From contig CAZULS010000001.1 of the NCBI GenBank assembly GCA_964621395.1, forward strand, positions 64,615 to 128,614: a stretch of 64,000 bases of DNA, written 5' to 3'. Position numbers and translations under genes: made by a program. The notes below the pieces were generated by a model. The model saw nothing but the letters and a program-made list of their open reading frames with translations. It had not been told where the DNA came from and did no database searches. Positions 12,217 to 58,031 of the stretch are shown piece by piece (the stretch's first letter is position 1; each line of letters opens with the position of its first letter). The stretch comes from an uncultured Candidatus Saccharibacteria bacterium (lineage in GTDB: Bacteria; Patescibacteriota; Minisyncoccia; Phycocordibacterales; JACNGX01).

Positions 12217-12449
12217 TTAGAACCGGTCTCACTGAAAATGGCTGTTCTCGCGCCCACACTGCGAGCGAACCGTCGTCGCGGAGACCACAACGTACTACTC
12301 GTACGTTATGGTTGAGCGACAAGGTGCAGCCGCAGTGTGGGCGCGAGAACGGCGCATGCGTAGCTCTTGAATATGTTTCTATTATTTTTCAACGTTTTCA
12401 GTGAGACTGGTTCTATTATTTTTCAACGTTTTCAGTGAGACTGGTTCTA
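12217..12449. mobile_element. MITE-like element, M family, about 200 bp, TIR TAGAACCGGTCTCACTGAAAA / TTTTCAGTGAGACTGGTTCTA. The 3-prime terminal 33 bp is tandemly duplicated (12381-12415 and 12416-12449).
   Basis: Terminal inverted repeats and a conserved core (gagaccacaacgtac...ggttgagcgacaaggtgcagcc) shared with the copies at 20100, 35707 and 40392. Confidence 0.7.
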
Positions 12450-12707
12450 CTACCGAATATCTCGCGGGGCGCTGTCGCGGAGTGTTTTTTTAAGAGTAGA
12501 GAGGATAGTTTTTTTTCTCATCGAAATCTCTGCTTTTATAAGCGGACTGGTTTCTATATACACAACTTCCTTTTGCACCCTCACATCGCCGATATCGAGC
12601 AAAATATTGTAATCCGACTCAAGTATCCTCACCACCTCTTTGCGTACCGACTCATCGGGAGGGGTGATGGATGTAAATTTCTTAAGGAGTGAGGAGATAG
12701 AATCCAT
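12450..12707 (-). CDS. Small hypothetical protein (85 aa) immediately downstream of dnaN, possibly DUF721/DciA-like
   Basis: Position after dnaA-dnaN and the segment DVRVQKEVVYIETSPLIKAEISMRKKTIL loosely resemble DUF721. Weak. Confidence 0.3.
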   Translation of the reverse strand: MDSISSLLKKFTSITPPDESVRKEVVRILESDYNILLDIGDVRVQKEVVYIETSPLIKAEISMRKKTILSTLKKTLRDSAPRDIR

Positions 12708-13029
12708 ACATGAAATAAAATATCAAATACCAAAACACAAATTCCAAATAATACCGAATATCAAAATCTCAAAACCCATTTGCTGTCATTCCTGGCTTGA
12801 CCAGGAATCTACAAGGCTATACGACCCACTCACGTCTGCCTGGACCGAGCACCACACTTATGTGTTTGAGAATAAAATTTTTTGTCAGTAAGATAGGTTA
12901 CTAGGAAGATTATATCCTCCATGAAATCAAAAGTGTGGTGCTTGGTGACGACAAAAGAGAGTTTGGAGATTAGAATTTTGGTCATTGAGATTTATTTGTC
13001 ATTTGGTGCTTGTGATTTGTAATTTTATT

Positions 13030-14130
13030 TTACTTATTCATCGGCATCACGAGTGAGAGAAACGACTGATCGCCCACTGATTCAATAATGAGTGGTTTAT
13101 TCTCTCCTGAAAACGACACTGACACACTGTCTCCTGAGAGTGACGCGAAGCTATCGGTAATATATTTATAATTCACACTGATTGTTATCTGCTCGCCGGA
13201 GAGTGATGCTTGGAGCGGCATCTTACTCTCACCCACATCGGCATTTTTTGTTTCAATGATATAGGTTTTTTCTTTTGGATTGAGTGACATGGTTGCTTGT
13301 TTGAATGTATTTGAAAACACCATACTCACCTTCAAAGCATCAATAAAATCTTTTTTAAGAACAATAGCGGTTGTGGTATATTCCTTCGGTATAATTTGGC
13401 GATAATCGGGAAACGAGCCGTCGATAATGCGAGAAGTAACATACACCCCTTCTTTCTCAAAGACAATCTGATGATCATTGAAACGAATATCCACATCACC
13501 TTGCTGTTGCTCAAAGATGCGAATAATTTCCAGTGCATTTTTATGTGGGACAAGAATACCACCCCAATCATTCACATTAGTATGTGCTATTTTCTTCTCA
13601 GCCAAACGAAACGAGTCAGTGGCAACAAACACTATGGTATTGTGTTCAGGATACATATACACACTTCCAAGCTCAGGCTTCACATCAGAAAGCGATGAGC
13701 TGTACACCACACTCTTCAATCCCTCAACAAGTTTCTTTACCGGAAGAGAAAAGCTGGTTCCTTGATCAATAACAGGAAGGGAAGGGAATTCCTCTGTGGG
13801 GAGACATTTGATAAGGGTGTTATTCCCTTGCATCGAAAGAGTAAGATTCCCTTCTTTTTCTTCAATATCAATCGCTCCCTCACCTGAAATACCTGAAAGG
13901 AAACCACTGAACACCGATGCTGGTACCGCAACGATACCATCACGCTCGGCCTTGACCGGAAGTTCAACTTCAATACCAATATCAAGATTGGTTGCACGAA
14001 TGACCATACGCTTTCCCGACACCTCTAAAAGAACTGAAGAGAGGATGGGAAGAGAAAGATTTTTTCCTGTTACTTTCTCCGCAAGAGAGATTGTTTCGGA
14101 AAGAAGTTTTTTTGAACATGAGCATTTCAT
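13030..14130 (-). CDS. dnaN: DNA polymerase III beta subunit (sliding clamp)
   Basis: 366 aa, three-domain beta-clamp pattern, dnaA-dnaN synteny. Confidence 0.85.
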   Translation of the reverse strand: MKCSCSKKLLSETISLAEKVTGKNLSLPILSSVLLEVSGKRMVIRATNLDIGIEVELPVKAERDGIVAVPASVFSGFLSGISGEGAIDIEEKEGNLTLSMQGNNTLIKCLPTEEFPSLPVIDQGTSFSLPVKKLVEGLKSVVYSSSLSDVKPELGSVYMYPEHNTIVFVATDSFRLAEKKIAHTNVNDWGGILVPHKNALEIIRIFEQQQGDVDIRFNDHQIVFEKEGVYVTSRIIDGSFPDYRQIIPKEYTTTAIVLKKDFIDALKVSMVFSNTFKQATMSLNPKEKTYIIETKNADVGESKMPLQASLSGEQITISVNYKYITDSFASLSGDSVSVSFSGENKPLIIESVGDQSFLSLVMPMNK

Positions 14131-14415
14131 ACTAATTCAAATGATTACATTATCCCCAAGGGTGTTTTGTATATTATTAAATAAAATTATTATTATTATA
14201 GACTCGGTGGAAAAGTGGAAAGGTATTCTTTTTCGTTATATATCAATGACGGAGCGATATATTCTCATGTGAATAACGTCGGCATAGAAGTGAGTGATTC
14301 TGTTTGCCTGTGTATAGTATATTCACTCCCTCTCTTTTTCCACATATTGTTATATTTTTATACACATACACATACAGGTACTTTTCCCGAGGCTCTACAC
14401 ATATTTTACCCCGCT

Positions 14416-15750
14416 CTACACCAGTGATCGAATTTTTTCCACCTCACTACGAAGACTATTGTCGTCGCTTAAATCTTTTTTCATCTTCTCACAGGAATGC
14501 ATCACTGTGGTGTGGTCTCTTCCCCCAAGATTTTTTCCAATCATCGGATAGGATGCATCATAATCTTCTCGCAAGATATACATCACAATTTGTCGCGGTT
14601 TTACAATCTCTTTTCGTCTCGTTTTCTCATAAATATCCTTTTCAGGAATATCATAGAAGCCGGCAACAGTCTTCACCACATCTTTCACAGAGATGTTCTT
14701 CTTCGGTTTTTCAGCGTGTTTGATGATACGTTTTACTTCATCGAGTGTGAGACCTTTCTCTCCCACTGAGGAATGGCACATGAGGGTGTTAATAGCGCCC
14801 TCAAGCTCGCGAATATTCCCTTCAATGGAAAGAGCAAGATAATCAACAACATCCCCGGGTACTTCAATACCCCGTGAACGAAGCTTCATGGTAATAATAG
14901 AGCTTCGAGCCTCATATTCCGGCTGATTAATGTCCACAATCATGCCGGCGCTAAAGCGTGATTTGAGACGTGACTCAAGACCGGGAATGAAATTGGGGTG
15001 TACGTCGGAGGAGAAAATAATTTGCTTATTACTGTCGTAGAGAGCATTAAAGACGTGGAAGAGTTCCTCTTGCGTTTTTTCTTTATTGGAAAGAAACTGA
15101 ATGTCATCCATGATGAGAGTATCGAAATTGCGATATTTTTCTTTGAAGACATTCGTCGTGTCATTTTGAAGAGAGGAAATGTAGTCAACGAGAAATTTTT
15201 CCGATGTGATGTAGAGTACACGCTTCTTCAAATCTTTTCTCAAATGATTTCCCACCGATTGGATGAGATGGGTCTTCCCCACTCCTGTTCCTCCATAGAC
15301 AAAAAGCGGATTATAGGTGACACCAGGATTTTTAATAATCGCCTGGGCCGCGGCGTACGCTAAATTATTGAATGATCCAACAATAAACGATTCGAATGTG
15401 TAGCGTGGATTGAGATTGCTCTCTTTGTCGACATACACGTCAGCAAGGGGTAGCTCTCCCACCTCACAGCTTTGTACTTTTTTCTCCTCTCCTTCTTTTG
15501 GCACCTTCGCAATAACATATTCGAGCCCACGTACACCGTCGGAGAGCTCACGCAATGACTTTAAAATCATTGTGTGAAATTTTTGTGACAACCATTCTTT
15601 CACGAATTCGTTGGGCACGGCGACGAAGACAGTCCCCTCGTCTTGCTTGACGATGTAGGTGTTGCGAAACCAGGTGCTGAAGTTTGCTCGAGAGATTTGC
15701 GACTCCACTTCGCTGAGTACACTATTCCAAAGTTGAGAGTTGTCGACCAT
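14416..15750 (-). CDS. dnaA: Chromosomal replication initiator DnaA
   Basis: AAA+ Walker A GTGVGKTHL, box VII, C-terminal DnaA-box-binding HTH (MYILREDYDASYPMIGKNLGGRDHTTVMH). Start moved to MVDNSQLW (Met75 of track ORF 14416..15972). Confidence 0.9.
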   Translation of the reverse strand: MVDNSQLWNSVLSEVESQISRANFSTWFRNTYIVKQDEGTVFVAVPNEFVKEWLSQKFHTMILKSLRELSDGVRGLEYVIAKVPKEGEEKKVQSCEVGELPLADVYVDKESNLNPRYTFESFIVGSFNNLAYAAAQAIIKNPGVTYNPLFVYGGTGVGKTHLIQSVGNHLRKDLKKRVLYITSEKFLVDYISSLQNDTTNVFKEKYRNFDTLIMDDIQFLSNKEKTQEELFHVFNALYDSNKQIIFSSDVHPNFIPGLESRLKSRFSAGMIVDINQPEYEARSSIITMKLRSRGIEVPGDVVDYLALSIEGNIRELEGAINTLMCHSSVGEKGLTLDEVKRIIKHAEKPKKNISVKDVVKTVAGFYDIPEKDIYEKTRRKEIVKPRQIVMYILREDYDASYPMIGKNLGGRDHTTVMHSCEKMKKDLSDDNSLRSEVEKIRSLV

Positions 15751-16060
15751 AGAACATGAGATATGTGACACGAATAACGTCACACCATTATAGTATGAGT
15801 GGACACTGTGTGGAAACTTGCAAACCTTGGAAAAGTCTGTTGATAACATGTGGAAAACCTCTTCGAGGCAATATAACAAAAACCAAAAAACAAATTCCAA
15901 ATAATACCCAATATAAAAATACCAATACCAAAACACTCTTGTAACTTTTTTGAATTTTGAATATTTGGTCATTGGTTTTTATTTGTGATTTGGTGCTTGT
16001 GATTTGGTTTTTCACTTGTCCCCTTGCATTTTTACGCCAATACGGTATAGTGGTCCCACT
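15751..16060. promoter_or_regulatory. Candidate oriC / dnaA control region, AT-rich with DnaA-box-like 9-mers (TGTGGAAAC, TTGATAACATGTGGAAAA). A ~50-bp repeat tttggtcattg...tatttgtgatttggtgcttgtgatttgg and a caaattccaaataataccNaatat motif recur downstream of dnaN at 12722-13026.
   Basis: Sequence inspection and dnaA-rpmH divergent arrangement. Direct repeats flank the dnaA-dnaN unit. A second DnaA-box-like/AT-rich tract lies between dnaA and dnaN (14131-14415). Confidence 0.45.
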
Positions 16061-16195
16061 ATGTCAAAGACGTATAACCCCAGCAACAGAAAACGCAAGA
16101 CAACCCACGGGTTTTTGGTCCGTAAGGCAACACCAGGCGGTCGTGCAGTACTCAAAAATCGCCGCCGCAAAGGACGCACGAAGCTTTCTGTGTAA
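16061..16195 (+). CDS. rpmH: 50S ribosomal protein L34
   Basis: [44 protein letters not shown]. Confidence 0.9.
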
Positions 16196-16342
16196 TATTT
16201 CATTCTACAAAAATCATCCGACACCACTCCCAGATTTGAGAAGTGTAATAAGATTTCATAAAAAACATTACATTTCCAGGTAATGTTTTTTATTTGGACG
16301 CACAAGAGTGGTGTCGGATTGGTTTTTGTATACAATATACTT

Positions 16343-16690
16343 ATGCTTCCGAAAAAAAGACGTATTCCCACAGTGTGGTTTAAGGGGCGATATCGCCGTG
16401 TTGGAGCACAAAAAGGATCTCATGTATCAGTGAGCGTTTTTGAGGCGTCTGAAAAAAGCTCCCCTACTCGTTTTGCGTGTGTTGTCTCAAAGAAAGGCGG
16501 AGTAAATGCCGCTATGCGCAACAGTATCCGTCGCAGAGTATATGCAATCATTGAGGAGTTACTTCCTCGTGTGCAAAACGGCCTCTATTGCACTCTTTCA
16601 CTTTCAAAAGATGTGCAGGACATTTCACATGAGGAATTGAAGAGCGAGATTCAAGATCTTTTGGAGAAAAGCAATGTGATTAATACGTAG
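16343..16690 (+). CDS. rnpA: Ribonuclease P protein component
   Basis: RFACVVSKKGGVNAAMRNSIRRRVYAII matches the RnpA RNR motif region; rpmH-rnpA synteny. Confidence 0.8.
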   Translation: MLPKKRRIPTVWFKGRYRRVGAQKGSHVSVSVFEASEKSSPTRFACVVSKKGGVNAAMRNSIRRRVYAIIEELLPRVQNGLYCTLSLSKDVQDISHEELKSEIQDLLEKSNVINT

Positions 16691-16714
16691 GTATACCAAT
16701 GAACATACCGTGGT

Positions 16715-16972
16715 ATGTTCATTGGTATGGTTGTGTCATCTTTCTTTATATTCTGTATTCGTGTTTATCAAACGCTCTTTTCCCGAGAACAAAGTGTCTG
16801 GGTGAAGTGGGGTATTGTGCGTGAGAAAAAGACCTGTATCTTTTATCCCACGTGCTCCGAATACATGATTCTCGCAATCAAAAAATATGGCCCATGGAAA
16901 GGAGTGAAAAAAGGCCTGAACCGCATAAGACGCTGCAACCCCAACACTCCCCCGTCGGTAGATATTCCCTAG
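16715..16972 (+). CDS. yidD: Membrane protein insertion efficiency factor YidD
   Basis: [34 protein letters not shown] motif. Confidence 0.8.
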
Positions 16973-17718
16973 AGACTTTTCCACACGAATGTTAGGAATG
17001 TGCGCTGCATGTCAGCGATTGCTTTATCTGTGATGACGACAGCGACGCGGTTTTCAAAGGAGATAAGTGCGAGTTTGTCTCCGGTTACGAGAAGGTCCGA
17101 CTGGAATTTCATTGACGTGGAAAGGGTTTTGTTTTTTACGAAACTTACGTATTCTTTCATATTCAATTGTTCTGTTGCCGCTTCGGATTTTTCAATCAGG
17201 TTGTGTATAGTGATTTCGTGCTCTTTTACTTTCATAAGAAGGGCATGATTTTCTTCTTTTGAGAACAGTGAGAAGAATGCTTCAGGTGAGTAAATGGTAT
17301 AAATATCCTGCCAGGTATTAAAAATTTCTTCATATGCGGCTATAAGCCCTCTCCTCCCCTCGTAGGTGACGATATTTGGCTTGGAGGCCGATTGAGCATA
17401 GAGTGATTCAAGCTCTGGAATAATCGCATTTATCCGATTTTTTGTGTAATCAAGAGACCGTTTTTCTTTTTCGAGATATGACACAATAGAACGAGGGTGT
17501 GTCGCTGCATATTCTAGACGTTTCCCCCGTTTGGTTTGTTGAATTAAACCTTTTTCTAAAAGCTCCTCAAGATACTGATATGTGGTTGTGCGTTTAATGC
17601 CCGTCTTTTTTGCAATGTCTGTTATATTCCCACTCCCCATACGGAGAATGGTGATATACACGGAAATGCTTGTCTCTTTGAGTCCGAGACGCATGAGATT
17701 TTTTTGTATATGTTCCAT
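16969..17718 (-). CDS. TrmB-family HTH transcriptional regulator, inserted antisense between yidD and yidC
   Basis: N-terminal winged HTH ([42 protein letters not shown]) with a TrmB-like C-terminal domain. Confidence 0.6.
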
Positions 17719-20099: not shown

Positions 20100-20298
20100 C
20101 TAGAACCCATCTCATATTAAATGACTTATTCTCGTGCCACATATTCGCAGCGTAGATGTCTCGGAGACCGTGCCGCACTTTTGTGCGGTGCAGTTGAGAG
20201 ACAAGGTGCAGCCGAATATGTGGTGCGAGAATTGCCAAGCTCTTACACGAAGTGTAAAAAGTATTATCTTAGCGGTTTAATATGAGATGGGTTCTAGT
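20100..20298. mobile_element. MITE-like element, M family variant (TIR CTAGAACCCATCTCATATTAAA / TTTAATATGAGATGGGTTCTAG), 199 bp
   Basis: Perfect 22-bp TIRs, and an internal core homologous to the other M copies (gagaccgtgccgcacttttgtgcggtgcagttgagagacaaggtgcagcc). Confidence 0.7.
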
Positions 20299-20299
20299 T

Positions 20300-21595
20300 T
20301 CAGTAATTCACATTCTCCATTGCCTCATCGATGCGGAGAATCCATGGCGTCATGTCGCGCTTATTGGTAAAGAGAAGGAGTGAGCCGTCGTCGCTCAGAA
20401 TTGGGTTGATCAAGTCGATGGTGGCATCATACATATTTGGATCAACAAGAAAGAAGCCGGTAGACTCTTCGACATCGTAGTACCATATATCATCTTCAAA
20501 GAACATTTCCCCTTTGTACCACGTGTCGGGATATTGGATAAAAGGAAGGGAAAATGGCACTCCGCAATAGACACCCTCCCCCGCCGTGTCCCAGACACAT
20601 TTTTCAGGAAGTGTATCAAAAAGGAGCGCTGTTTCTTCCCCATCTGAGAAGACTTTTAGTATGAGCGTGTTCCCCAAGCTTTCAGAGAAAAGCACTTTCG
20701 TGCCGTCGGGGTTGACGAGTGTGGTGAGACCATTTATGCCGCTCAATAGAGGATTAAGTGTGCTTGAGGAGAGCGATGTGTAGTAGCTGTACCCGGGAAC
20801 AGATGCCGAGGGCTTTGTGGTGAGGTAGATATAGTCGTCTTCCGCCCAGTCGATAAGCCATTCGGAGAGCGGCGAAGAGAATGTCTCTTTCGGGCCTTCT
20901 CCGGAGAATGGCACAATAATGCCGCGAGAGCCACTTTGCGTTCGCTCAAGGAGAAAGAGTGAGTCTTGCGAGGGGTTGGTATCGAATGTAAGAGTACCGG
21001 TGCGGAGGAATTCTGCCTGAGCAACACCAATGACTTCCCCCTCTTCTTCTGCCGTGGAGATTGAAATGCCGGTCCCCTCAACAACATCAGTATCATTCAG
21101 TGAACGAGTAAAAAGCTGTGATCCGTCGGCACTGAAGAGTGCATCGTGAATATGCGGGATGGTTGTGTTGGTAATACGCGTTGCCTCAAGTGTGTCAACG
21201 GGGATATCAAATATATGTCCGGTCGCTTTTGTGATCACGCGAATAGCAAGAACATCCTCAGCCCCTTCTGTTTCTTCCTGTATTTCGGAGAGAGTGACAA
21301 ATGTCGCTCCTGACACGGGCTCGGGGAATACTTGGGAGATAAGGTCGATAGCGGGTTGAGTGCCGTCACTTGGCGTTGTGCCTCCCTGGGTACCATTCTC
21401 CTCTCCCCCACCGAAGAGAGAACCGAGAACACCCCCTCCTTCACCGCCAAAGAGAAAGCTAAAAAAACCACCACTTTGTATTTCCTCGGAAGTGTTATTG
21501 CGGTTGAGAAACATCATTCCCGCACCAGCAAGGATGGCGACGATAATGAGGATGAATCCCCAGAGAATAATTTGTTTTTGTCGTGCGCTGTTCAT
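20300..21595 (-). CDS. N-terminally membrane-anchored extracytoplasmic protein with a Gly-rich linker; last gene of the T4SS-like operon
   Basis: TM helix at residues 12-30, GGEGGG linker, and beta-rich C-terminal region. Confidence 0.5.
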   Translation of the reverse strand: MNSARQKQIILWGFILIIVAILAGAGMMFLNRNNTSEEIQSGGFFSFLFGGEGGGVLGSLFGGGEENGTQGGTTPSDGTQPAIDLISQVFPEPVSGATFVTLSEIQEETEGAEDVLAIRVITKATGHIFDIPVDTLEATRITNTTIPHIHDALFSADGSQLFTRSLNDTDVVEGTGISISTAEEEGEVIGVAQAEFLRTGTLTFDTNPSQDSLFLLERTQSGSRGIIVPFSGEGPKETFSSPLSEWLIDWAEDDYIYLTTKPSASVPGYSYYTSLSSSTLNPLLSGINGLTTLVNPDGTKVLFSESLGNTLILKVFSDGEETALLFDTLPEKCVWDTAGEGVYCGVPFSLPFIQYPDTWYKGEMFFEDDIWYYDVEESTGFFLVDPNMYDATIDLINPILSDDGSLLLFTNKRDMTPWILRIDEAMENVNY

Positions 21596-32455: not shown

Positions 32456-32644
32456 CTTAGAACCAATTAAATAACCTACGCAAAAAAGTAAAAGAGGGAT
32501 GCTCCGGGCAGTCGACGAGCAACATCCGGCATAAAAACCGCGAAAATTCTTCACCATATCTCGATATGGCTCAAAATTTGATCAATTTTTCTGCTCGAAT
32601 GTTGCTCGTCTTTATGCTCCGGAGGTTATGTAATCGGTTCTAAG
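32456..32644. mobile_element. MITE-like element, L family, copy 1 (TIR CTTAGAACCAAT...ATCGGTTCTAAG), 189 bp
   Basis: About 90 percent identical to the reverse complement of 34736-34924. Its right TIR supplies the TAG stop of the lnt-like gene. Confidence 0.7.
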
Positions 32645-34178
32645 GTATGGAAACAATGAGAAGCTCCGCTTTTCCACGGGCGGTACTGTGAGTGATTGTG
32701 CCGGAAGGGTTAATGAGAAAAGACGGTACACCATTTCCCGCGTGGATAAAGTGTCGACCGTGTGTCACGGCGTGGATACGTGCTTGGCGAGTGACGAATG
32801 TCCGGAGTGTGTCGCTGCCGTGAAACGATGAATGAGATGCTGTATTTACAAAAAGATCACTTCCCTCACGCGCTCCGGCAGCGTAAAGTTGTGGGGGTGT
32901 GATTTCCGCACAGAAAAGTGCGGTGATTGTGTAATTATGTACGGAGCCGAGGGTGACGGGTGCGTCGAAAGGATCGGGTGTGTACACGCGACGGTTGCGA
33001 AATGTGTCACGCCACTGGGGAGCGATTGTTTCGGCGATGGTGGCAGCGAAAGCGGGCAGGTATTCGCCAAATGGTGTGAGGAAGCGTTTGTGATATGTGC
33101 CCGCAATTGTGCCCTCCGAAGTGTAGAGGTGGTGTGCCAAACGCAAATCACCGCTTTCCTCTCGGTATGTGGTTGAATCTATGGTCGCGCCCCGAGGTGA
33201 AAGATGGGAAGAGAGAAACGTGCCGCGCTCTTCTTCGGAAAGCGACGAAAGGAAGCGAGAATCTTCGGGAAAGACAAGGAGGTCAAGGGTCGGAGTGTTT
33301 TCGGAGAAGAGCGCGGCTATGTCGCTGTGAGTGTGCTTAAGGGTGGTTTGGGTTGAGCCGAATTCGGATATGCTTTCCGTGTGGATGATACCAATAGTGA
33401 GTGAATCGGAAGAGGAGAGTACAGAGCTGCCCTCCTTTCGAGACAATACTGATGGAACAATGATAATGCCGACAAGAGAGAGGATGATTAGTGCTCGAGA
33501 CATGAGAGACGATGCGCGGTCAATACACACAGCAATTCCCATATTGATATAGACAGCGATAAGAGAAAGGGCCGTGAGACCGCCTATGCTTGCGTACAAC
33601 AGAAGTGATGTGTCACTGAGGGGGGCGCCGGCAAAACCGAATGTCCAATACGGACCGATAGCGGCTTCAGGAGCATACCAAAGAACAGAAAAGAGAAAGG
33701 CGCGGAGGTATTCTGTGAGCACAAAAAGGAGTGTTCCCAAGGAAAGAGTACGGAATACTCCACCTTTAAGCCGTGCAATGAGCCAGGCAAAGAGCGCAGG
33801 GCCGATTGAAAGGACAAGCGTCCCTAAGAGCCATACGGAAGCAATAACCGCATATGACACAACAGGGCTTTCAATGCCGACCCATGTGAGCGGGTATGTG
33901 TCGAAAAACCAAAAAATACTGGCACCGAGCCCGAGGATGCCATAGATGAATCCGCCGATAGCGGCGCGCTTCGGTGATTGTGCGCGAAACACAAAGAAGA
34001 AAAACGGCACGAGCGCGATGAGTGAGAAGAGGCCGGTACCGGGAAAGAGAAACAGACTTGCACTCATCATACCGCTCAAAAGCGGGAGAAGATATGAATC
34101 AGGGCGAGTGAATGGTGAGAGGTGCTCGGGCATGGGTATAGTATAAATGAAAAAGAACAAACAAAAAACGGAAAACAA
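32640..34178 (-). CDS. lnt: Apolipoprotein N-acyltransferase-like protein (polytopic N-terminal domain + C-terminal CN-hydrolase)
   Basis: 7-8 N-terminal TM helices; LLVFPEDSRF (Glu), ALFCAEITPPQL (Cys of the catalytic triad). Confidence 0.55.
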   Translation of the reverse strand: MFSVFCLFFFIYTIPMPEHLSPFTRPDSYLLPLLSGMMSASLFLFPGTGLFSLIALVPFFFFVFRAQSPKRAAIGGFIYGILGLGASIFWFFDTYPLTWVGIESPVVSYAVIASVWLLGTLVLSIGPALFAWLIARLKGGVFRTLSLGTLLFVLTEYLRAFLFSVLWYAPEAAIGPYWTFGFAGAPLSDTSLLLYASIGGLTALSLIAVYINMGIAVCIDRASSLMSRALIILSLVGIIIVPSVLSRKEGSSVLSSSDSLTIGIIHTESISEFGSTQTTLKHTHSDIAALFSENTPTLDLLVFPEDSRFLSSLSEEERGTFLSSHLSPRGATIDSTTYREESGDLRLAHHLYTSEGTIAGTYHKRFLTPFGEYLPAFAATIAETIAPQWRDTFRNRRVYTPDPFDAPVTLGSVHNYTITALFCAEITPPQLYAAGAREGSDLFVNTASHSSFHGSDTLRTFVTRQARIHAVTHGRHFIHAGNGVPSFLINPSGTITHSTARGKAELLIVSIP

Positions 34179-34722: not shown

Positions 34723-34735
34723 GAATGTATTATAA

Positions 34736-34924
34736 CTTAGAACCAATGAAATAACCTCCGGAGCACAAAGACGAGCAACATTCGAGCAGAAAAATTGATA
34801 CACATTCTGAGCCATATCGAGATATGGTGAGGAATGTTAGCGGTTTTTATACCGAATGTTGCTCGTCGACTGCCCGGAGCAGTGACTTCTTATTTTTTGC
34901 GTAGGTTATTTAATTGGTTCTTGG
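34736..34924. mobile_element. MITE-like element, L family, copy 2 (inverted relative to copy 1), 189 bp
   Basis: TIR CTTAGAACCAATG...ATTGGTTCTTGG. Overlaps the last 6 codons and TAA stop of rsmA. Confidence 0.7.
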
Positions 34925-35691: not shown

Positions 35692-35706
35692 GAATTCATA
35701 TTATAG

Positions 35707-35906
35707 CTAGAACCAGTCTCACTGAAAATGGCTTGTTCTCGCGCCCAAACAGCGAGCGAGCCGATGTCGCGGAGACCGCGCCGCACTCTCGTGCGGTGCG
35801 GTTGAGCGACAAGGCGCAGCCGCTGTTTGGGCGTGGGAACTGCCAAGCGCAGCTCTTGAGTACGATTCCCTTATTTTTTCAATGTTTTCAGTGAGACTGG
35901 TTCTAG
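35707..35906. mobile_element. MITE-like element, M family, 200 bp, immediately upstream of rsmA
   Basis: TIR CTAGAACCAGTCTCACTGAAAA / TTTTCAGTGAGACTGGTTCTAG; conserved core. Confidence 0.75.
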
Positions 35907-36050
35907 GTCCTTCCTAGCTACACTCTTTACGTTGTCATCCCGCACTTGATCCTACACCACAAGCGGTCGGATATAATGCGGGATCTCCCCAATGTTCACC
36001 ACATTACACCACACTTTTCCGCATTTTTTAAAGCCGGACTTTGCAGAGTG

Positions 36051-37031
36051 TTATGTTGCAACGTTTTTTCGTTGCGTGTGTCGCATAAGTGCACGAAACG
36101 GAATAAAGAGAAGTGCCCAAGGAATCACCGAGAGAATGGTGGGCACTACAATCGAGGGCATGTCGCCGAAGAATGTGTCGGAAAGATCAATGGCGAGTGT
36201 GAAGTTCATATAGGTGAGGCATGTGGCAATGGCAATGCGTTCTTTTTTCTTCTTCCACCAAATAGCCGTGTAGCCGAGCACATGCAGCACGATGAAGAGA
36301 ACGATGAGCGCAAAAAGATACAGGAGCGACTCTCCCCCGCTTCCGAGAGCAAGGATTTCTTCCGGGCGTTTGGCAACGACAAAAGCAATGAGGATGGCAA
36401 GGAGGCCGGTGGAAATCGGCGTGAAGGACTGCTCAATACGATTGATCGTGCGGGGAATAATGCGCTTAATGATTTGCGCCAGAATAAATGGCAGGAAGAT
36501 AATAATGGCGAGGCGGCTAAACATGGCGAATGCATCAATGGAAATGTCCGCACCAACCATAAGCGCCACGACAAGCGGCACAGAAAGCGGCGCAAGGAGC
36601 GAGGTAAGGACGGCTTCGACAAGCGCGTACTCTTCCCTTCCACCGGCAAGCGAGGTGAGAAACGGTGCTGTCATGCCCGACGGCATTGCCGAAAGAAGCA
36701 GGAAGGCAATGGCTACTTCCGGATACAGCGCCTCGGTGACAAAAAAGACAACGACCGGCAAAAGCACAAGCATAAAAAGCGCCGAGATGAGGAGCGTTTT
36801 CACATCGCTGAGCGCACCGCGCACTTCATGGAAATCAATTTTAAGAGCGCTCAAAAAGAAAATACCCGCAAGCGCCACAAGCGATACATACGGATACTTC
36901 CCCACCACCTCAGGTGTATGGGTGCCGATACCAATACCAATCACAAACGCCACGCCGATAATAAAGAGAAGTGACGAGCTGATTTTTGCCACAATACGTC
37001 CAAGTGAATGCATGATGTTACTAGTATACAT
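36051..37031 (-). CDS. Bile acid:sodium symporter (BASS/SBF) family transporter
   Basis: About 10 TM helices in a 5+5 repeat organisation typical of the SBF family; 326 aa. Confidence 0.55.
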   Translation of the reverse strand: MYTSNIMHSLGRIVAKISSSLLFIIGVAFVIGIGIGTHTPEVVGKYPYVSLVALAGIFFLSALKIDFHEVRGALSDVKTLLISALFMLVLLPVVVFFVTEALYPEVAIAFLLLSAMPSGMTAPFLTSLAGGREEYALVEAVLTSLLAPLSVPLVVALMVGADISIDAFAMFSRLAIIIFLPFILAQIIKRIIPRTINRIEQSFTPISTGLLAILIAFVVAKRPEEILALGSGGESLLYLFALIVLFIVLHVLGYTAIWWKKKKERIAIATCLTYMNFTLAIDLSDTFFGDMPSIVVPTILSVIPWALLFIPFRALMRHTQRKNVAT

Positions 37032-37135
37032 GACTTTGCCAACAAGAATGACATTTGTATAGATTCTGAATCACCAAGCACCATTTTCACTAAAGTGAAA
37101 AAAGTACTCGACACGAGCTCAGAGTGACAAGTATG

Positions 37136-38389: not shown

Positions 38390-40348
38390 TTACTCCACCT
38401 CAATCGTCGGTAATTCATCAGGGTCTTCGGTTTCTGTGTATGTGTCGCTTAAGTCCATTAGAAATTCTGAGGGAGTTTGGGCGCTGATTGAGCCGAAGAT
38501 GGTGCGTGTGTGGGCGTAGGAGAGCCACACTTTTTTCTCCGCACGAGTGATGGCGACATAAAAGAGACGGCGTTCTTCTTCAGCACGCTCGGGACTTACG
38601 ACTGGTCCATCGAAACCGCGGTGTGGGAAAAGTCCGTCTTCAAGGCCGGTGATAAAGACATACGGAAATTCCAATCCCTTGGAAGCGTGCACGGTCATAA
38701 GGCGGACGGCATTTTCATCTTTCTTTTTCTTGGCATCGCCGAGCGAGTCTTGATCGGAAGCAAGGGCCGCGTCGGAGAGGAGCGTTTCAATTCCCTCTTC
38801 GGGTGTGAGGTGGTCGTATTTGGTCGCCAAGCCGACGAGCTCATAGACATTCTCCAGGCGCTCTTCCCCTTCTTCTTTGTCTTTGCGAAAAGCATCCTCA
38901 AGACCGGAACGCTTAATTACATGCTTGAGCGTTTGCGATACAGGGAGATTGGCGCAGTCGTGGGCGATATCGGAAAGAATGTCACGGAAAGCGTGTACCT
39001 TTGCTTGCGTTGCCGGCGGCAGTGTTGCTTCTTCTCCGGAAAGGACTTTTGCCAATGTCACCTTGCCAATACCGCGTGCGGGGACATTCACAATGCGGGA
39101 GAAATCAGCCGTGGCTGCAGGATTAAGAGCGGCGCGGATGTATGCGAGGACATCTTTCACCTCTTTGCGGGCGAAGAATTTCACACCGAGGACTTGATAC
39201 GGAATATTTTTCCCCAGCATGGCTTCTTCAAGAACGCGTGATTGAAAATTTGCTCTGTAGAGAATGGCGATGTCTTTTGGTTCTGCGCCCTGCCGGATAA
39301 GTTCTTGTATTTTTTGAGCGGCAAAGTCCGCCTCAGCTTTCTCGTCCCCGCAAGCAACAACGCTCAATCTCTCGCCCCCCTCTTTGCGGGTGAAAAGATT
39401 TTTTTCTTTGCGCAGTGTGTTTTTGCTAATGATATCGTTGGCCGCCTCAAGAATAGGCGCGGTGGAGCGATAATTTTCTTCCAAGAGCACCACGGTTGCT
39501 TCAGGGTAATCTTCTTCAAAGAGCATCATGTTGCGGAAGTCGGCACCGCGCCAGCCATAAATACTTTGATCGGTGTCGCCCACCACGCAAATATTTTTTC
39601 GCTCACCGGCGAGAAGTTTGGAAAGGGTGTATTGCGCAAAGTTGGTGTCTTGGTATTCGTCGATGTGAATGTGTGACCAGCGTGAATGATAGGTGTTGCG
39701 GATGGTTGGGTCGTTCTTAAGGAGGAGTGTGGTATGGAGAATGAGATCATCAAAATCAAGAGAACCTTCTTCTTCGAGGAGCTTTTCGTATTCGCTCCAC
39801 ACACGTGCCACGATGCGCGGGAAATATTCGTTTTCCACCGACGCTTTGTAGTTTTCGGCAGTGCGAAGCTCCCCTTTCTCGCGAGAGATGGCATTCTTCA
39901 TACGGCGCGGTTCAAATTGCTTTGGGTCGAGCTCGCATTGCTGCAACGCTTTTTTCATGAGACGCGATGTGTCGTCGTCGTCAAGAATAGTGAAATGCTT
40001 CGGACGATTGATAGCTGCAAATTCACGGCGGAGAATGTAGACGCCAAGCGCATGAAAGGTGGAGACAAACGGCGCGGAACCATCGTATGCTCGGACAGGA
40101 TCTGCCGAGAGAAGTTTTACCACACGCTCCTTCATTTCCGCCGCCGCTTTATTGGTGAAGGTAATGGCAAGGATTTGTTCCGGCGCCACGCCTGAGTGAA
40201 TGAGGTTGAGCATGCGGTGCGTGAGGGTTTTGGTCTTCCCCGCGCCGGCACCGGCCACGATAGAGAGCGGGCCGGTTGTGTGCTCGGCTGCTTTTCTCTG
40301 CTCCGGATTGAGTCCTTCGAGGTGATCCATAGGGGGTAAGTATAGCAT
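38390..40348 (-). CDS. pcrA: ATP-dependent DNA helicase PcrA/UvrD
   Basis: Motif I AGAGAGKTKTLTHR, motifs II-VI, 650 aa. Start moved to the Met at MLYLPPMDHLEGLNPEQ because the upstream extension lies inside the MITE. Confidence 0.85.
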   Translation of the reverse strand: MLYLPPMDHLEGLNPEQRKAAEHTTGPLSIVAGAGAGKTKTLTHRMLNLIHSGVAPEQILAITFTNKAAAEMKERVVKLLSADPVRAYDGSAPFVSTFHALGVYILRREFAAINRPKHFTILDDDDTSRLMKKALQQCELDPKQFEPRRMKNAISREKGELRTAENYKASVENEYFPRIVARVWSEYEKLLEEEGSLDFDDLILHTTLLLKNDPTIRNTYHSRWSHIHIDEYQDTNFAQYTLSKLLAGERKNICVVGDTDQSIYGWRGADFRNMMLFEEDYPEATVVLLEENYRSTAPILEAANDIISKNTLRKEKNLFTRKEGGERLSVVACGDEKAEADFAAQKIQELIRQGAEPKDIAILYRANFQSRVLEEAMLGKNIPYQVLGVKFFARKEVKDVLAYIRAALNPAATADFSRIVNVPARGIGKVTLAKVLSGEEATLPPATQAKVHAFRDILSDIAHDCANLPVSQTLKHVIKRSGLEDAFRKDKEEGEERLENVYELVGLATKYDHLTPEEGIETLLSDAALASDQDSLGDAKKKKDENAVRLMTVHASKGLEFPYVFITGLEDGLFPHRGFDGPVVSPERAEEERRLFYVAITRAEKKVWLSYAHTRTIFGSISAQTPSEFLMDLSDTYTETEDPDELPTIEVE

Positions 40349-40391
40349 ACGAGTTTCGAGTATCGAGTTGCGAGCAGTGTCGCTTCGCGAC

Positions 40392-40600
40392 ATGAAAGTT
40401 GTTAGAACCAGTCTCACTGAAAATGGCTTGTTCACACGCCCAAACTGCGAGCGAGCCGACGTCGCGGAGACCGTGCCGCACTGCCGTGCGGTGCGGTTGA
40501 GCGACAAGGCGCAGCCGCTGTTTGGGCGTGGGAACTGCCAAGCGTAGCTCTTGAATATGTTTCCCTTATTTTTCAACGTTTTCAGTGAGACTGGTTCTAG
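40392..40600. mobile_element. MITE-like element, M family, 208 bp, immediately upstream of pcrA/uvrD. Flanked by TCGAG-hexamer repeats on the left and a GTTGGTAGTTTTTAG + GC-hairpin motif on the right.
   Basis: TIRs TAGAACCAGTCTCACTGAAAA / TTTTCAGTGAGACTGGTTCTAG; core about 90 percent identical to 35707-35906. Confidence 0.75.
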
Positions 40601-44674: not shown

Positions 44675-46042
44675 CTATTTGTTTTGAAGATTCTGTGCAA
44701 TGCTATCGATTTCCGCCTGAGAAAGATTGAGTGCATCTTGATACGCGGTATTTACATTTCCATCGTTGAGCACAGAGGACAAATCAAGCGTATCTCCCGG
44801 GAAAATCATATCGGGATCGCCGCTTTCAATACCGACAGCTTGGAGCTGGCCAGGGTTCATAGCCTCAACACGATCCTTTAGCGCATCCACAACATGCGTT
44901 TGCTGCTCGGCGCCCATGGCATCGAATGTGGATTGACCGGACAGTTTCTCTTTGATGATATCCCACACGGTATCACCTTCTTCGACAGGGATGTTGCTTG
45001 TGTTACCTAGGAGACCTTCAACTGCGCTGCTCGCACCATCTCCGACACCGGAAAGCAGCTCACCAAAGAGGCGGCCAAGTAAGACAGTGGCAACGACACC
45101 GCCGCCCGCGGAGACAAGAGTGTGAACATTTTTCTTAACGGTAGAGCGCTGATCGACACCCTCCCCTTTCTTCTTTGCGTATTTTTCAAATGCTCCTTCA
45201 AAAGTTGCATAGAGTGCCGAGCCGGTCAAAACGCGACCCACTATTGCCGGAGCGAAAAATGCGGGAAAACCCGTAAAAGTTCCCACAACAGCGCTTCCAA
45301 CCGCTGCTGCGGCAAGACCACGTTTAACCCACTTTGGACATCCTTTTTTCCACCATTCCCCGAAACGACGTCCGACATTCCACCCCTCTTTTTCTTTTTG
45401 AGCAAGTTTTTCTTCGTCGCGGCGTTGCATTTCTTCTAGCGCCTTTTTGACATCTTCCTGACGCTCCGCCTTCTCTCGCAAATCTTCCATATCGGTGAGC
45501 GGTTCAAGACGGTCCTTCTCTACGGTACCGTCACCCACTTCTCCTTGAGTGTTTTCCACCTCTCCTTCTTTGTCGTCAGTATTGCGATTTTCAAAACCGG
45601 CACGAAGGCCAGCGCCCTTTTCCGTGTCATCCAACGGACTCCCTGCTCCTTGCTCTTTGCCCGGAACCTCAGTTGTTACAGATCCTTGAGGAGGAGTATT
45701 CGGATCGTATGCTTGTTCCGAAGAGATTTGCTCTCCCATGACGAAATTAGACTCTTCTTTCTCGTTCTCGTTGTCGTCGGTATTGCGATTTTCAAAGCAT
45801 TCTTTCAGAGCTGCGCCTTTTGTTGTGTCATCCAACGGACTCCCTGCTCCCTGCTCTTTGGGCACAGACTTCTTTTTTGAGCGGAGTTTTTCCATTGGGT
45901 TAAAGGAGAAGGCGGTCCCTCCTTCTTTTTCTTTCGGTTTTTGTAATTCCTCTTTTGGATTAAAAGAGAACGAATCACGCGGACGTTCCCCATTGACGAT
46001 ATCTTCCAGGCTAGGAAAATCTTTTTCAGGTGAAGACGACAT
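44675..46042 (-). CDS. LysM-domain membrane protein with a tandemly repeated acidic N-terminal region (KEQGAGSPLDDTxKGA...FENRNTDD x2)
   Basis: C-terminal LysM (EEGDTVWDIIKEKL...IFPGDTLDL), a central TM/Gly-Ala helix, and an internal ~45-aa repeat. Confidence 0.55.
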   Translation of the reverse strand: MSSSPEKDFPSLEDIVNGERPRDSFSFNPKEELQKPKEKEGGTAFSFNPMEKLRSKKKSVPKEQGAGSPLDDTTKGAALKECFENRNTDDNENEKEESNFVMGEQISSEQAYDPNTPPQGSVTTEVPGKEQGAGSPLDDTEKGAGLRAGFENRNTDDKEGEVENTQGEVGDGTVEKDRLEPLTDMEDLREKAERQEDVKKALEEMQRRDEEKLAQKEKEGWNVGRRFGEWWKKGCPKWVKRGLAAAAVGSAVVGTFTGFPAFFAPAIVGRVLTGSALYATFEGAFEKYAKKKGEGVDQRSTVKKNVHTLVSAGGGVVATVLLGRLFGELLSGVGDGASSAVEGLLGNTSNIPVEEGDTVWDIIKEKLSGQSTFDAMGAEQQTHVVDALKDRVEAMNPGQLQAVGIESGDPDMIFPGDTLDLSSVLNDGNVNTAYQDALNLSQAEIDSIAQNLQNK

Positions 46043-52639: not shown

Positions 52640-52975
52640 TCAGTTTTCTGTGTAATAGGGGAAAGAAAAAAGTGAAAAAGGCACCAGTCTTTCAAGACAT
52701 GCTCGAAACCGTTCTTGATTCTCTGGACGAGCAAGAAAGTTCCCTAGCCGTGTTCCGCTGATAACTTCAGAAGGGTTGATATGAAGAGCGCAACATATGT
52801 GAGTAACGCCCTTTATAAAAGAACCGCATCCCCTGCCCTCCTCGATATCTAAAATATCTTCTTTCGATATACCAGTCAGAAGAGAGAGCTCGAGTCGTGT
52901 TTTGTCCTTCTTTTTCCTTTCTTTTTGTATTCTTTCCCCAATGAGTATCCTTTCGGACCGTAGGTATATGCTCAT
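52640..52975 (-). CDS. XRE-family HTH transcriptional regulator
   Basis: LELSLLTGISKEDILDIEEG helix-turn-helix. Confidence 0.5.
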   Translation of the reverse strand: MSIYLRSERILIGERIQKERKKKDKTRLELSLLTGISKEDILDIEEGRGCGSFIKGVTHICCALHINPSEVISGTRLGNFLARPENQERFRACLERLVPFSLFSFPYYTEN

Positions 52976-53122
52976 GGTACAGGTTGTATTTGTGTAGTGA
53001 AAGAACCTCTTTATTCAAGGATATAAAAAAGAAGGATTACATGCAAGGACAGTGTACAAGAAAAACATGCGCGCGGCCGAAGGCCGCGCGCATGTTTTGT
53101 CTTTACACAGTGAAACCTTTTT

Positions 53123-55318: not shown

Positions 55319-55577
55319 GAGTATATGCTCATCGACACATGGCAGCGCTGAAAAAATCGTGAAATCGATTTCAACACCGGGCATGTGGCGATGAGAAAGT
55401 AAAATGATGAATAAAATATGAAAGACACCTGACACCACTTTTACATTTCTGTTCTCTGTATGAACGCAATTAGTTATTGGTTGTTTTGCAAATAAACACG
55501 TTTGGGAGAAGCGAAAGTGGTGTCAGGCGCGCGTAACATGATGGAGTATACCCCAAAAACACCTCACCCAGAACCCC

Positions 55578-55606
55578 TTGACTTTTAAAATCAAGTATGC
55601 TATCAT
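55578..55606 (+). promoter_or_regulatory. Sigma70-like promoter TTGACT-17-TATCAT upstream of gene 55669..56337
   Basis: Seen in sequence, 60 nt upstream of the start codon. Confidence 0.45.
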
Positions 55607-55668
55607 GGGGAAAGAAAAACGGGGTAGTAAAACCAATAATAATGTAGTTTGAAACAAAGGAGATAGTC

Positions 55669-56337
55669 ATGTTATTAGCGTTTACTCTCTGGTTTGTTGT
55701 GTTTGTGGTATTGGCGATTGTTGCCGCGGTAATGAGCAACAGAGCCGACGAAGAGAAGGAAAAGTGGCGCGAAAGGACCTTGAACGGTGTCGCGTTTATT
55801 ATTTTCCTTGCGGGACTGTTTTCCGCTCTGTACATTGAATACCCTGCGTATAACGGCAAAATTGTTGCCGTCAAAGATGGTAACGTCGTCGCTGAATATC
55901 CTGCGGGGGTATTCGAACCCCTTGCGAAGGGAAAGCTTGTGCGAGTTTTAGGGGGAGAGCATAGAGTAAATTACTCCTCTTTGCGTTTTTACGACAAGTA
56001 TCCTTTTGTCGCGGAGCTCGCAGGAGTAGAACTCACTTTGCGTGTGCAAGACGAGGAAAGGTATGCTATCACGCGTGCCGCAGAAGACGGTTTCAGATAC
56101 ACCGTGTTGCTTTCTTTGGAACAGGAAGTGGTTGCACTCCAAGTACGGTACGGGAGAGCAAATCGTGATAATCCTTCTCTTGGAGGATACGAAAGATTCA
56201 TGAAAAGAGGTATCGCCTCTTATCTCAAACCAAGAGGTTTGATCATGACAGATTTCGTGGTCGCTCATTCAAACTTTGAGGATATGGAGGAGCGCGAGAA
56301 GGAAATGGACAAGCTCGAAAAAAGCAGACGCAGGTAA
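55669..56337 (+). CDS. Membrane-anchored hypothetical protein (222 aa)
   Basis: N-terminal TM helices; rest unassigned. Confidence 0.4.
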   Translation: MLLAFTLWFVVFVVLAIVAAVMSNRADEEKEKWRERTLNGVAFIIFLAGLFSALYIEYPAYNGKIVAVKDGNVVAEYPAGVFEPLAKGKLVRVLGGEHRVNYSSLRFYDKYPFVAELAGVELTLRVQDEERYAITRAAEDGFRYTVLLSLEQEVVALQVRYGRANRDNPSLGGYERFMKRGIASYLKPRGLIMTDFVVAHSNFEDMEEREKEMDKLEKSRRR

Positions 56338-56544
56338 TATCCAACAGCAACAGAAATGCCCCCGCAGGTTTCGGCCTTCGGGGGATGTTTATTTGTATAC
56401 AAAAGCAGGGGTGTGCTGTGCACGCCCCTGCTCTTTTACTCTTAGATCCCGCATCACCCACGTCGCCAAGGCTTTGCGGGGCAAGCGTGCGGGATGACAC
56501 ACAACAAAAGGGCGCGCAAAGCGCGCCCTTTTGTTGCCGTCCGC

Positions 56545-57270
56545 TTACGCAAATCGTTTGATTTCCCGTTCCAGCGCGGTTTTGAAATCGCGAATGATTC
56601 TGTGGTGGTCCTTGGGAAGAAACGTTTTGAGTTCCGCGGAAAAATCAATATCACTCGCGCGCAGCGCGCCAATCACGTCGGCAAACAGCTTCGTTTTGTC
56701 CGTCTTTTTAGGAAGCATATTGCGGCGGAGTAAAAAATAAAAATCGTAAAAATCACGCGGCTTTTTGCGCGAAAGAAGTGCGTCTATTTTTCCCGCCACC
56801 AAATCTTCTTCGGCAAGTTGCACGAGCGTGTAGTCAGGAATCATGGCACTTGTGACAAGCGTTGCTGTTCCGCGCGTGTTTCTTTTTCGAAGCGATATTT
56901 CGGTGCGTATCGGTATTGTTTCATCGCCGAACAAAAAGCGCATAATGGAAAGATGTCCGCCACTCGTTTTCTTGACTTCGTCCAGTGCTACATTCGCGCC
57001 GCCGCGCTGCATGTCTTCAAGTGCCGCCGCAATCGCGTCTTCAATGCCACGTACGTTGTTCTCCGAAGCATCAAAATCCAAATCTTCGGAAAAGCGCGGA
57101 CTTCGGTATAAAAGCCGCAGAGCGGTACCACCTTTGAAATACAGCGCGTCAGCGTGCGGGGATCGATACAGCGACGAAAGAAAAAGATGCTGGACATATT
57201 CGCGCCGTACGTTAAGTTCGGACGTGCGCAGCGCGTGGGAAAGACGAGTGATTGCGTCGGGTGAAAGCAT
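56545..57270 (-). CDS. abiEii: AbiEii/AbiGii-family nucleotidyltransferase toxin (type IV TA / abortive infection)
   Basis: FKGGTALRLLYRSPRFSEDLDFD hallmark motif. Start set at MLSPDAI so that it follows the antitoxin stop by a few nt. Confidence 0.75.
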   Translation of the reverse strand: MLSPDAITRLSHALRTSELNVRREYVQHLFLSSLYRSPHADALYFKGGTALRLLYRSPRFSEDLDFDASENNVRGIEDAIAAALEDMQRGGANVALDEVKKTSGGHLSIMRFLFGDETIPIRTEISLRKRNTRGTATLVTSAMIPDYTLVQLAEEDLVAGKIDALLSRKKPRDFYDFYFLLRRNMLPKKTDKTKLFADVIGALRASDIDFSAELKTFLPKDHHRIIRDFKTALEREIKRFA

Positions 57271-57274
57271 ATTA

Positions 57275-57886
57275 CTACGTGAGAGAACGGATAACGGTAT
57301 CGAGTTTTTTTCTGTCAAACAATGTCGCATACGACCGTATTTTATGGTGGTTCAGCCGCGATATGTTCACGCGGTCGTTCATGGTTTTTTTTCCGAGGGC
57401 GACAAAATACGCGTAGTCAACAAGAGCTTTTTCCGGCTCCGCGATGTACACAATGTGTCCGTCAATCGTTTCGGGGACATAGCCTGCGTACGCGCGCGGC
57501 TTGATGGTGGCGTATGTGAATGTTTTTTCATTCACGGAAAACGACGCGGTTGTTTTCGGCGTGACGGACGTGATTGCGTACGGCATCTCGGGAATAATGC
57601 CGAACCGCGCGAGCGCGTATTCGAGAGAAATGTACGAGGGAACGTACAGAGCGTTTGCGATGACTTCTTCCGACGGCATGGCGTGTGCAAGCGCGTAGAG
57701 TCCTTTTTTCAGACGTGTAAATAGTCCGCGCTTTGTGTATGTTTCGAGAAAATATTTTGTCTGCGTCGGCGAAAGGGAAAACAGCCGCCGGATGTCGCGC
57801 GGAGAAAAGACGGCAATATCGTTCTCTTGCAGCGCACGCTGTATTGCCAGCGGTTGATCAAATTTTGATTTGCGAAAAGTGTACAT
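57275..57886 (-). CDS. abiEi: AbiEi-family antitoxin / transcriptional regulator
   Basis: N-terminal wHTH (DIRRLFSLSPTQTKYFLETYTKRGLFTRLKKGLY) and C-terminal AbiEi_3/4-like domain; upstream of and overlapping AbiEii. Confidence 0.7.
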   Translation of the reverse strand: MYTFRKSKFDQPLAIQRALQENDIAVFSPRDIRRLFSLSPTQTKYFLETYTKRGLFTRLKKGLYALAHAMPSEEVIANALYVPSYISLEYALARFGIIPEMPYAITSVTPKTTASFSVNEKTFTYATIKPRAYAGYVPETIDGHIVYIAEPEKALVDYAYFVALGKKTMNDRVNISRLNHHKIRSYATLFDRKKLDTVIRSLT

Positions 57887-57960
57887 ATGTAAACTTTACA
57901 CAAATAATTTTATACCGGTGCGTATGTGCCGTCAAGCGCGCAAACAAAATGGTTGACGTA

Positions 57961-58031
57961 CTAGAACCAATCTCACTGAAAACGTTGAAAAATAAGGAGA
58001 TCATATTCAAGAGCTGCGCTTGGCGGTTCTA
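57961..58031. mobile_element. Miniature (71-bp) derivative of the M-family MITE. It keeps a left TIR CTAGAACCAATCTCACTGAAAA plus about 45 bp matching the right-end subterminal region, and ends ...GGTTCTAA.
   Basis: It is the reverse complement of the right 65 bp of 40392-40600, with a short terminal inverted repeat. Confidence 0.55.

Follow-up and report, generated by a model that had tools for sequence, protein, structure and literature searches.

The DNA considered here, a 64,000-nucleotide stretch of contig CAZULS010000001.1 (the window), carries housekeeping, toxin-antitoxin and type IV secretion-like genes. It includes a dnaA-dnaN origin region, and the sign of the GC skew switches at about 12-16 kb. 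The PcrA and DnaA homologues place the host in a Yonathbacteria-like lineage of Patescibacteria, the candidate phyla radiation (CPR). Set between these genes are two families of short elements with terminal inverted repeats (TIRs), A and B, which are real families of miniature inverted-repeat transposable elements (MITEs) that have recently been active. Family A consists of four copies of ~198 bp (c1-c4), all on the plus strand, and one 71-bp derivative, with TIRs of 22-26 bp. An earlier note on this DNA described family A and overlooked family B (~185 bp), which has the same termini. All A and B elements in the window are intergenic and lie close against gene ends:

12217-12449, plus strand: c1, family A; element proper at 12218-12415, followed by a 34-bp tandem duplication of its right end (units 12382-12415 and 12416-12449); between the stop of the open reading frame (ORF) 12450-12707, which it abuts, and the start of relB (11804-12139)
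20100-20297, plus strand: c2, family A, divergent subfamily; 3 nt past the stop of ORF 20300-21595
35707-35906, plus strand: c3, family A; in the gap from the SBF transporter stop codon to the rsmA start; 15 nt separate its left end from the rsmA ATG
40402-40600, plus strand: c4, family A; ~70 nt ahead of pcrA, which starts at 40330
57961-58031, minus strand: 71-bp family A derivative, in the opposite orientation to c1-c4
32458-32642, minus strand: B1, family B, 185 bp; immediately past the stop codon of the LNT-like gene (32640-34178)
34738-34923, plus strand: B2, family B; between rsmA and the DUF192 gene, inverted with respect to B1

The limits of family A are defined by its TIRs. The TIR 21-mer TAGAACCAGTCTCACTGAAAA occurs eight times in the window at three or fewer mismatches and not once in 100 dinucleotide-preserving shuffles. 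All seven plus-strand occurrences of TAGAACC are left ends of elements, where base composition predicts ~3.9 occurrences per strand, and seven of the eight occurrences of GGTTCTA are right ends. Searching the window with a profile of the four long copies retrieves c1 (with a second right end reaching 12449), c2, c3, c4 and the 71-bp copy, and nothing further. The five copies described in the earlier note are all found at the positions it gave or a few bases away, and its placement of them at gene boundaries holds at the distances listed above. Some details change: the tandem duplication in c1 is present and measures 34 bp rather than 33, c4 begins at 40402/40403 rather than at 40392, and the 71-bp copy exists as described, in an orientation opposite to that of the long copies. 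Pairwise, the window copies differ by 7-41%, c3 and c4 being 93% identical and c2 59-66% identical to the rest. Given this divergence, the unique flanks of the copies and the recurrence of family A in independent assemblies from different samples, assembly artefacts and single-genome segmental duplications lacking TIR-defined boundaries, either of which the earlier note had said would undo its proposal, are excluded. Six-frame translations of the copies reveal no ORF common to them, the frames of these 185-200-bp elements being broken by 1-nt indels. A candidate conserved micro-ORF, starting from an ATG beside the left TIR, was rejected since its frame differs between copies.

Family B was found by repeat finding, and its interior is unrelated to that of family A. 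The termini of the two families are alike, TA-GAACCA(A/G)T, only the outer ~9 bp (TA-GAACCArT) being common. They also have the same layout: a left TIR, a long hairpin, a short spacer with CTTATTTTT just inside the right TIR, and the right TIR. The hairpin of family B is its own (-82 kcal/mol, z = -10). Derivatives of ~70 bp that have lost the hairpin and kept intact ends exist in both families, the deletions lying between short direct repeats (GAACC/GAACT in family A, CCGGAGC in family B). In the 71-bp copy of family A the right ~63 bp of the element, comprising the right TIR and the spacer with CTTATTTTT, is fused to an 8-bp left terminus; this copy is 91% complementary to the right end of c4.

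For comparison, we obtained relatives as contigs encoding close PcrA or DnaA homologues. These comprise, by PcrA identity, loci L009 (86%), L010 (72%), L051 (71%) and L052 (71%); by DnaA identity, L056 (87%) and L057 (95%); L058, whose pcrA is 92% identical at the nucleotide level; and a TARA relative, scaffold_4 of ERZ28653815 (~43 kb, loci L053 and L054), whose pcrA is 93% identical at the nucleotide level. The TARA scaffold holds three A copies and one mini-B, mostly at sites other than those occupied in the window:

L054 13110-13309: family A copy at the relB site, orthologous to c1, without the 34-bp duplication
L054 18096-18292: family A copy t_tyrS, beside a small ORF downstream of tyrS; the window is empty there
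L053 14829-15027: family A copy t_rsmA, decayed and c2-like with a diverged core, between rsmA and DUF192
L054 18974-19044: mini-B, 70 bp, between ruvC and yebC

The totals are seven copies in the 64-kb window versus four in ~43 kb of the TARA relative, and the relB site is the sole one in common. The TARA scaffold lacks c2, c3 and c4. The orthologous site of c2 holds no copy in L054 or L056, and the nearest relative of c2 is t_rsmA. The gap between the SBF transporter gene and rsmA, which contains c3 in the window, is 60 bp in L053, and c4 is not present in L058, L009 or L053. The junction of rsmA and DUF192 is occupied by t_rsmA, a family A element, in TARA and by B2 in the window; in L009, L010 and L051 these genes directly adjoin each other or overlap. 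No A or B copy is found in loci L009, L010, L051, L052, L056, L057 and L058. Copies have thus been gained since closely related genomes diverged. As expected of dispersed repeats, short-read contigs terminate inside copies; one Logan short-read contig stops 29 nt into c3.

The surroundings of the copies offer two further observations. B1 and B2 stand inverted around the LNT-like and DUF192 genes in a composite-transposon-like arrangement, which is probably a coincidence, since L009 has both genes without B copies. The palindrome ATTAAGGTnnnACCTTAAT occurs four times in the window (7253-7276, 11772-11795, 12191-12214 and 58044-58067) and also in L054 at ~13316-13335; two of its copies flank relB, and two lie within 3-12 nt of family A left ends, those of c1 and the 71-bp copy. 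A role as operator or terminator-like site is conceivable for this palindrome.

Three filled and empty orthologous pairs, at the tyrS, c4 and mini-B sites, can be aligned base for base:

tyrS site, empty (window): gaaacaagTAaaaa / gaaacaagTAaaaaatgatgaacg; longer context ...catagaaacaagTAaaaaatgatgaacgtataatt
tyrS site, filled (TARA): gaaacaagTA[GAACC..GGTTC]TAaaaataatgaacg, right flank TAaaaa; longer context ...catagaaacaagTA[GAACCGG...CTGGTTC]TAaaaataatgaacgtataatt
c4 site, empty (L058): ctaccaacTAacaactt; longer context ...actaaaaactaccaacTAacaactt
c4 site, filled (window): ctaccaacTA[GAACC..GGTTC]TAacaactt; left context ...actaaaaactaccaacTA
mini-B site, empty (window): cttacTTAgat; longer context ...ggtcttactTTAgatatt
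mini-B site, filled (TARA): ...ggtcttactTTA[GAACC...GGTTC]TTAgatatc

A single TA in the empty sites is matched in the filled ones by a TA on both sides of GAACC...GGTTC, which is the target-site duplication that the earlier note had suspected; L009 is compatible with the same c4 target. Because filled and empty sites align in this way, the mobile unit is 5'-GAACC...GGTTC-3', inserted at a TA that is duplicated onto both sides. At the left end, TA lies directly outside GAACC in eight of eight family A copies (window and TARA) and in B1. At the right end, it lies directly outside GGTTC in the same copies, with the exception of the decayed t_rsmA; B2 and mini-B have an extra T at this end.

The interior of the elements is strongly structured. 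Each full copy folds end to end on both strands (z about -11 to -15). The RNA fold of c3 has an energy of -130.6 kcal/mol (z = -14.6); its other strand reaches -114.3 (z = -11.4), and the DNA fold -76.6 (z = -13.2). These values agree with the extended hairpin that the earlier note had seen in the core. Among four copies, 16 of 72 pairs have changed on both sides with pairing kept, against 5.6 in column shuffles and 1-3 with slid partners; among seven copies the count is 22 of 73, distributed across the TIR stem and helices P2-P5. The interior is a long imperfect hairpin whose pairing has been preserved through changes on both arms, and the most likely reason for the persistence of such fold-back DNA would be selection on transposition competence or hairpin-internal templated repair. 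We read the hairpin as fold-back DNA that is symmetrically maintained; a dedicated RNA function is less likely.

The elements show the traits by which MITEs are recognised: a size below ~300 bp, non-coding sequence, TIR-defined ends, a target-site duplication and insertion polymorphism. The earlier note had proposed that family A is MITE-like and non-autonomous, and the non-coding sequence, together with different sites and precise empty sites in relatives, bears this out. We consider it very probable that the A (~195 bp) and B (~185 bp) elements and their ~70-bp derivatives are non-autonomous cut-and-paste MITEs served in trans by an enzyme of the IS630/Tc1/mariner type. Insertion almost exclusively at TA, with duplication of the TA, is a documented hallmark of this group (PMC2170065). 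A DDE transposase of this type, with its gene at another place in the genome or on a separate replicon, would bind the TIRs and move the A and B elements in trans. Since only the outer ~9 bp is common to the two families, they would use the same enzyme or two related ones.

Several points weigh against this assignment. A comparison of 40 window ORFs with Pfam reveals no transposase domain, as the earlier note had also stated for the window, and no full-length element with matching TIRs was found in the 64 kb; neither is found among the called genes of ~43 kb of the TARA relative, nor was a transposase seen in the flanking DNA of the relatives. The enzyme class is accordingly deduced only from the duplicated TA. 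For the mini-B site and the B2 flanks, a 3-bp TTA duplication is as good a fit as TA with an extra terminal T, and duplications of 2-3 bp would be compatible with some IS5-family groups too. The unpaired blocks CGGAGACC and GTTGAGnGACAAGGyGCAGCC are near-invariant beside covarying stems, even in c2, and a plain MITE does not need them. Finally, two lineages alone inform the copy number and host range, because scans for the exact core pattern in GTDB species representatives, JGI metagenomes and IMG/VR returned only chance matches, without the element and in unrelated, mostly coding sequence; the diverged core of t_rsmA indicates that this pattern is too strict. A scan of IMG/VR with the TIR gave 40 single matches, none with a paired inverted end, as expected of chance. 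The plasmid and phage collections yielded no blastn match to c3, and six-frame translations of c1, c2, c3 and B2 matched nothing at E <= 10 among 5.8 billion predicted proteins.

The length of the duplication bears on a related alternative, in which the elements are MITEs whose partner belongs to another superfamily, IS5-family or PIF/Harbinger-like, with 2-4-bp duplications around a TA core. The mini-B pair, cttacTTA[GAACC..GGTTC]TTAgat when filled and cttacTTAgat when empty, can be read as a 3-bp TTA duplication; B2 has TTA at its left flank and TTG at its right flank, and the bases around the TA lean to Y-TA-R. The t_tyrS site, however, with flanks gTA and TAa, is incompatible with a 3-bp duplication, and the c4 site fits TA as well, though CTA is possible there. 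A variant terminus explains the extra right-end T common to B2 and mini-B just as simply, and no IS5-like gene was seen. We regard a partner of this kind as unlikely.

A further proposal is that the ~110-nt central hairpin of family A is a functional cargo or cofactor site rather than passive fold-back DNA. It would act as a structured RNA or as a DNA hairpin to which a protein of the host or the transposase binds, and a TA-targeting MITE would be its means of spread. This suggestion follows from the covariation of the stems and from the loop blocks (CGGAGACC and, as RNA, GUUGAGnGACAAGGyGCAGCC), which are near-invariant between subfamilies that are only ~60% identical. We hold it to be unlikely. 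If true, it would point to mobilisation from another replicon or by an unrecognised enzyme, as no cognate transposase has been seen in the CPR lineage.

The hairpin core has only a slim chance of being the functional unit itself, as a small RNA, a cis-regulatory element or a protein-recognised single-stranded DNA hairpin, with the TIR shell a mere vehicle. Such a role would account for the strong compensatory variation in every helix, for internal-loop blocks that are near-invariant even in the 59-66% identical c2, and for a strand bias in six window copies (four A and both B), in which one strand folds 7-20 kcal/mol better and has more G-U pairs. This bias is gone or reversed in the TARA copies (-106.1 versus -110.6 for t_tyrS, -59.7 versus -82.8 for t_rsmA), and a strand-specific RNA, a prediction that held in the six window copies and failed in two of three TARA copies, was dropped from consideration. 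Moreover, the elements show no uniform orientation towards the genes beside them, a search inside the element found neither promoter nor terminator, and Rfam gives no match in the window at gathering thresholds and only noise for c3 at E <= 10. The 70-bp derivatives of A and B persist with intact ends without the hairpin, and concerted change of the palindrome arms is possible without RNA function. A kink-turn reading of the GGA/GA internal loop was also tried and, by inspection, set aside, as its register would break helix P5.

It is scarcely credible that the elements are REP/REPIN-like palindromes moved by an HUH enzyme (a REP-associated tyrosine transposase, RAYT, or an IS200/IS605-type enzyme) acting on single-stranded hairpins: although they are long hairpins in a genome rich in separate 25-nt REP-like hairpins, often in inverted doublets, they are ~195-bp units that have true TIRs and duplicate a TA, an outcome foreign to HUH-mediated insertion. 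Their orientation is unrelated to the replication direction read from GC skew (c1-c4 are all on the plus strand although the origin separates c1, on its left, from c2-c4, on its right; B1 and the 71-bp copy are on the minus strand), and the window contains no RAYT or TnpA_Y1 gene. A rule tying orientation to the single-stranded DNA of one replication strand was accordingly rejected as a misfit with the GC-skew origin at ~12-16 kb.

The REP-like hairpins form a family of their own, GTCATYC-stem-CTTGA-stem-GRATC, of which the window contains 19 copies of ~25 nt each against 0.44 expected. Their stems covary (CCCGCA/TGCGGG, TCTGAA/TTCAGA, CCTGG/CCAGG). They often form REPIN-like inverted doublets 40-90 bp apart and occur also in L009 and L058; no RAYT-like gene lies in the window. 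Their positions in the window are:

1881, 3836, 6890, 6931, 8821, 8909, 11723, 12785, 37572 and 37632
37674, 40661, 40719, 47563, 47620, 60346, 60396, 61652 and 61704

The non-autonomous MITEs described above also touch the genes beside them, a side effect of insertions that fall in AT-rich gene boundaries. These insertions would supply stop codons and C-terminal codons, a -35-like hexamer, and large hairpins in untranslated regions. The right TIR of B2 encodes the end of rsmA, its final five codons plus the stop codon, giving a C-terminus unlike that of all relatives, and the TARA rsmA ends at the terminal TAG of its element. On the other side of rsmA, a hybrid promoter is predicted:

35700-35728, minus strand: predicted rsmA promoter with -35 TTTTCA in the left TIR of c3, a 17-nt spacer and -10 TATAAT in the flank

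This promoter matches the consensus at 10 of 12 positions, and its TATAAT (35700-35705) lies 8 nt before the ATG. We infer that c3 took the place of the sequence formerly upstream of the rsmA -10 box, its TIR now supplying the putative -35 hexamer. The TARA copy t_tyrS lies ~10 nt upstream of the start of the small conserved ORF and may place a hairpin of ~195 nt in its 5' leader.

Many genes in the window have a TATAAT-like box only 7-9 nt before the ATG and no Shine-Dalgarno sequence, among them rsmA (35692-35705), pcrA (40331-40344), DUF192 (34723-34736) and relB (12140-12155). This pattern suggests leaderless mRNAs and promoters that would depend mainly on the -10 element. Between genes around ruvB, yebC and ruvC lie clusters of direct and inverted TTCGTAyG/TACGAA repeats (for example gtacgaagtacgaacacatacgaacatacgaag), which are kept in the TARA relative and could be regulator binding sites:

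Window: 3766-3816, 3923-3968, 6247-6302, 6830-6867 and 6976-7021
L054: 18840-18880 and 19090-19130

Other features of the window lie apart from the elements. A 93-nt direct repeat (45567-45659 and 45768-45860, 81% identical, 201 nt apart) is contained in the 455-aa ORF 44675-46042, which has no Pfam match. Paralogous AT-rich segments at 12717-13030 and 15870-16017 lie on either side of dnaN-dnaA and, with the skew switch at ~12-16 kb, look like a two-part replication origin. Nucleotide identity is mosaic in 36005-37035 and 38390-40351 in comparison with L053 and L058: the genes for PcrA and the SBF transporter share 92-95% identity with two related assemblies, and their neighbours are 72-80% identical to the TARA scaffold, a pattern that suggests recent recombination between lineages.

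Families A and B invite comparison with the bacterial MITEs Correia/NEMIS, RUP, ERIC and RPE because they match these in size, TIRs, terminal TA, stem-loops, long and short forms, promoter-like sequences and ORF fusions (PMC2229807). RUP (repeat unit of pneumococcus) is an IS630-linked MITE that has been ascribed to an IS630 member from its insertion at TA with TA duplication (PMC2229807). RUP and similar elements are likewise small and non-coding, have TIRs, insert at TA and occur in many intergenic copies, presumably mobilised in trans by a transposase of the IS630 family (PMC2229807; PMC2170065). RUP, however, is 107 bp long with 9-bp TIRs that resemble those of IS630-Spn1 (PMC2229807), whereas the elements described here measure ~195 and ~185 bp, have 22-26-bp TIRs and a long covarying hairpin, and have no known partner insertion sequence. 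The Correia/NEMIS elements of Neisseria resemble them in TIRs of ~24 bp, a TA duplication, and a long form (~155 bp) and a short one (~107 bp) distinguished by an internal segment. Putative promoters that face outward, fusions with adjacent ORFs and stem-loops in RNA are further points of likeness (PMC2229807). The Neisseria elements differ in host phylum and sequence, and they carry an IHF site where the long form here has a structured hairpin of ~110 nt. ERIC/IRU, YPAL and the Rickettsia RPE share full-length imperfect palindromes, long stem-loops, a terminal 5'-TA-3' and a position at gene boundaries (PMC2229807). ERIC differs in having TIRs of ~7 bp and an orientation-dependent effect on mRNA, in contrast to the lack of an orientation rule or strand preference here. 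RPE also occupy a reduced genome and can contribute codons (PMC2229807), but they do so in frame inside genes rather than at gene ends.

A full-text literature search combining MITE terms with CPR or Patescibacteria returned no paper on MITEs by title or abstract. What is new is the description of two MITE families in a CPR bacterium; the mechanism class is well established, and the conceptual advance is modest. The genomes of Patescibacteria are very small, and here A and B make up ~2% of the window, where they appear to reshape gene ends, including the rsmA C-terminus, its stop and its -35 region. The exact ends, TA-GAACCArT, give a handle for seeking the cognate transposase. For this lineage, the elements account for contig breaks in metagenome-assembled genomes and offer strain-level insertion markers.

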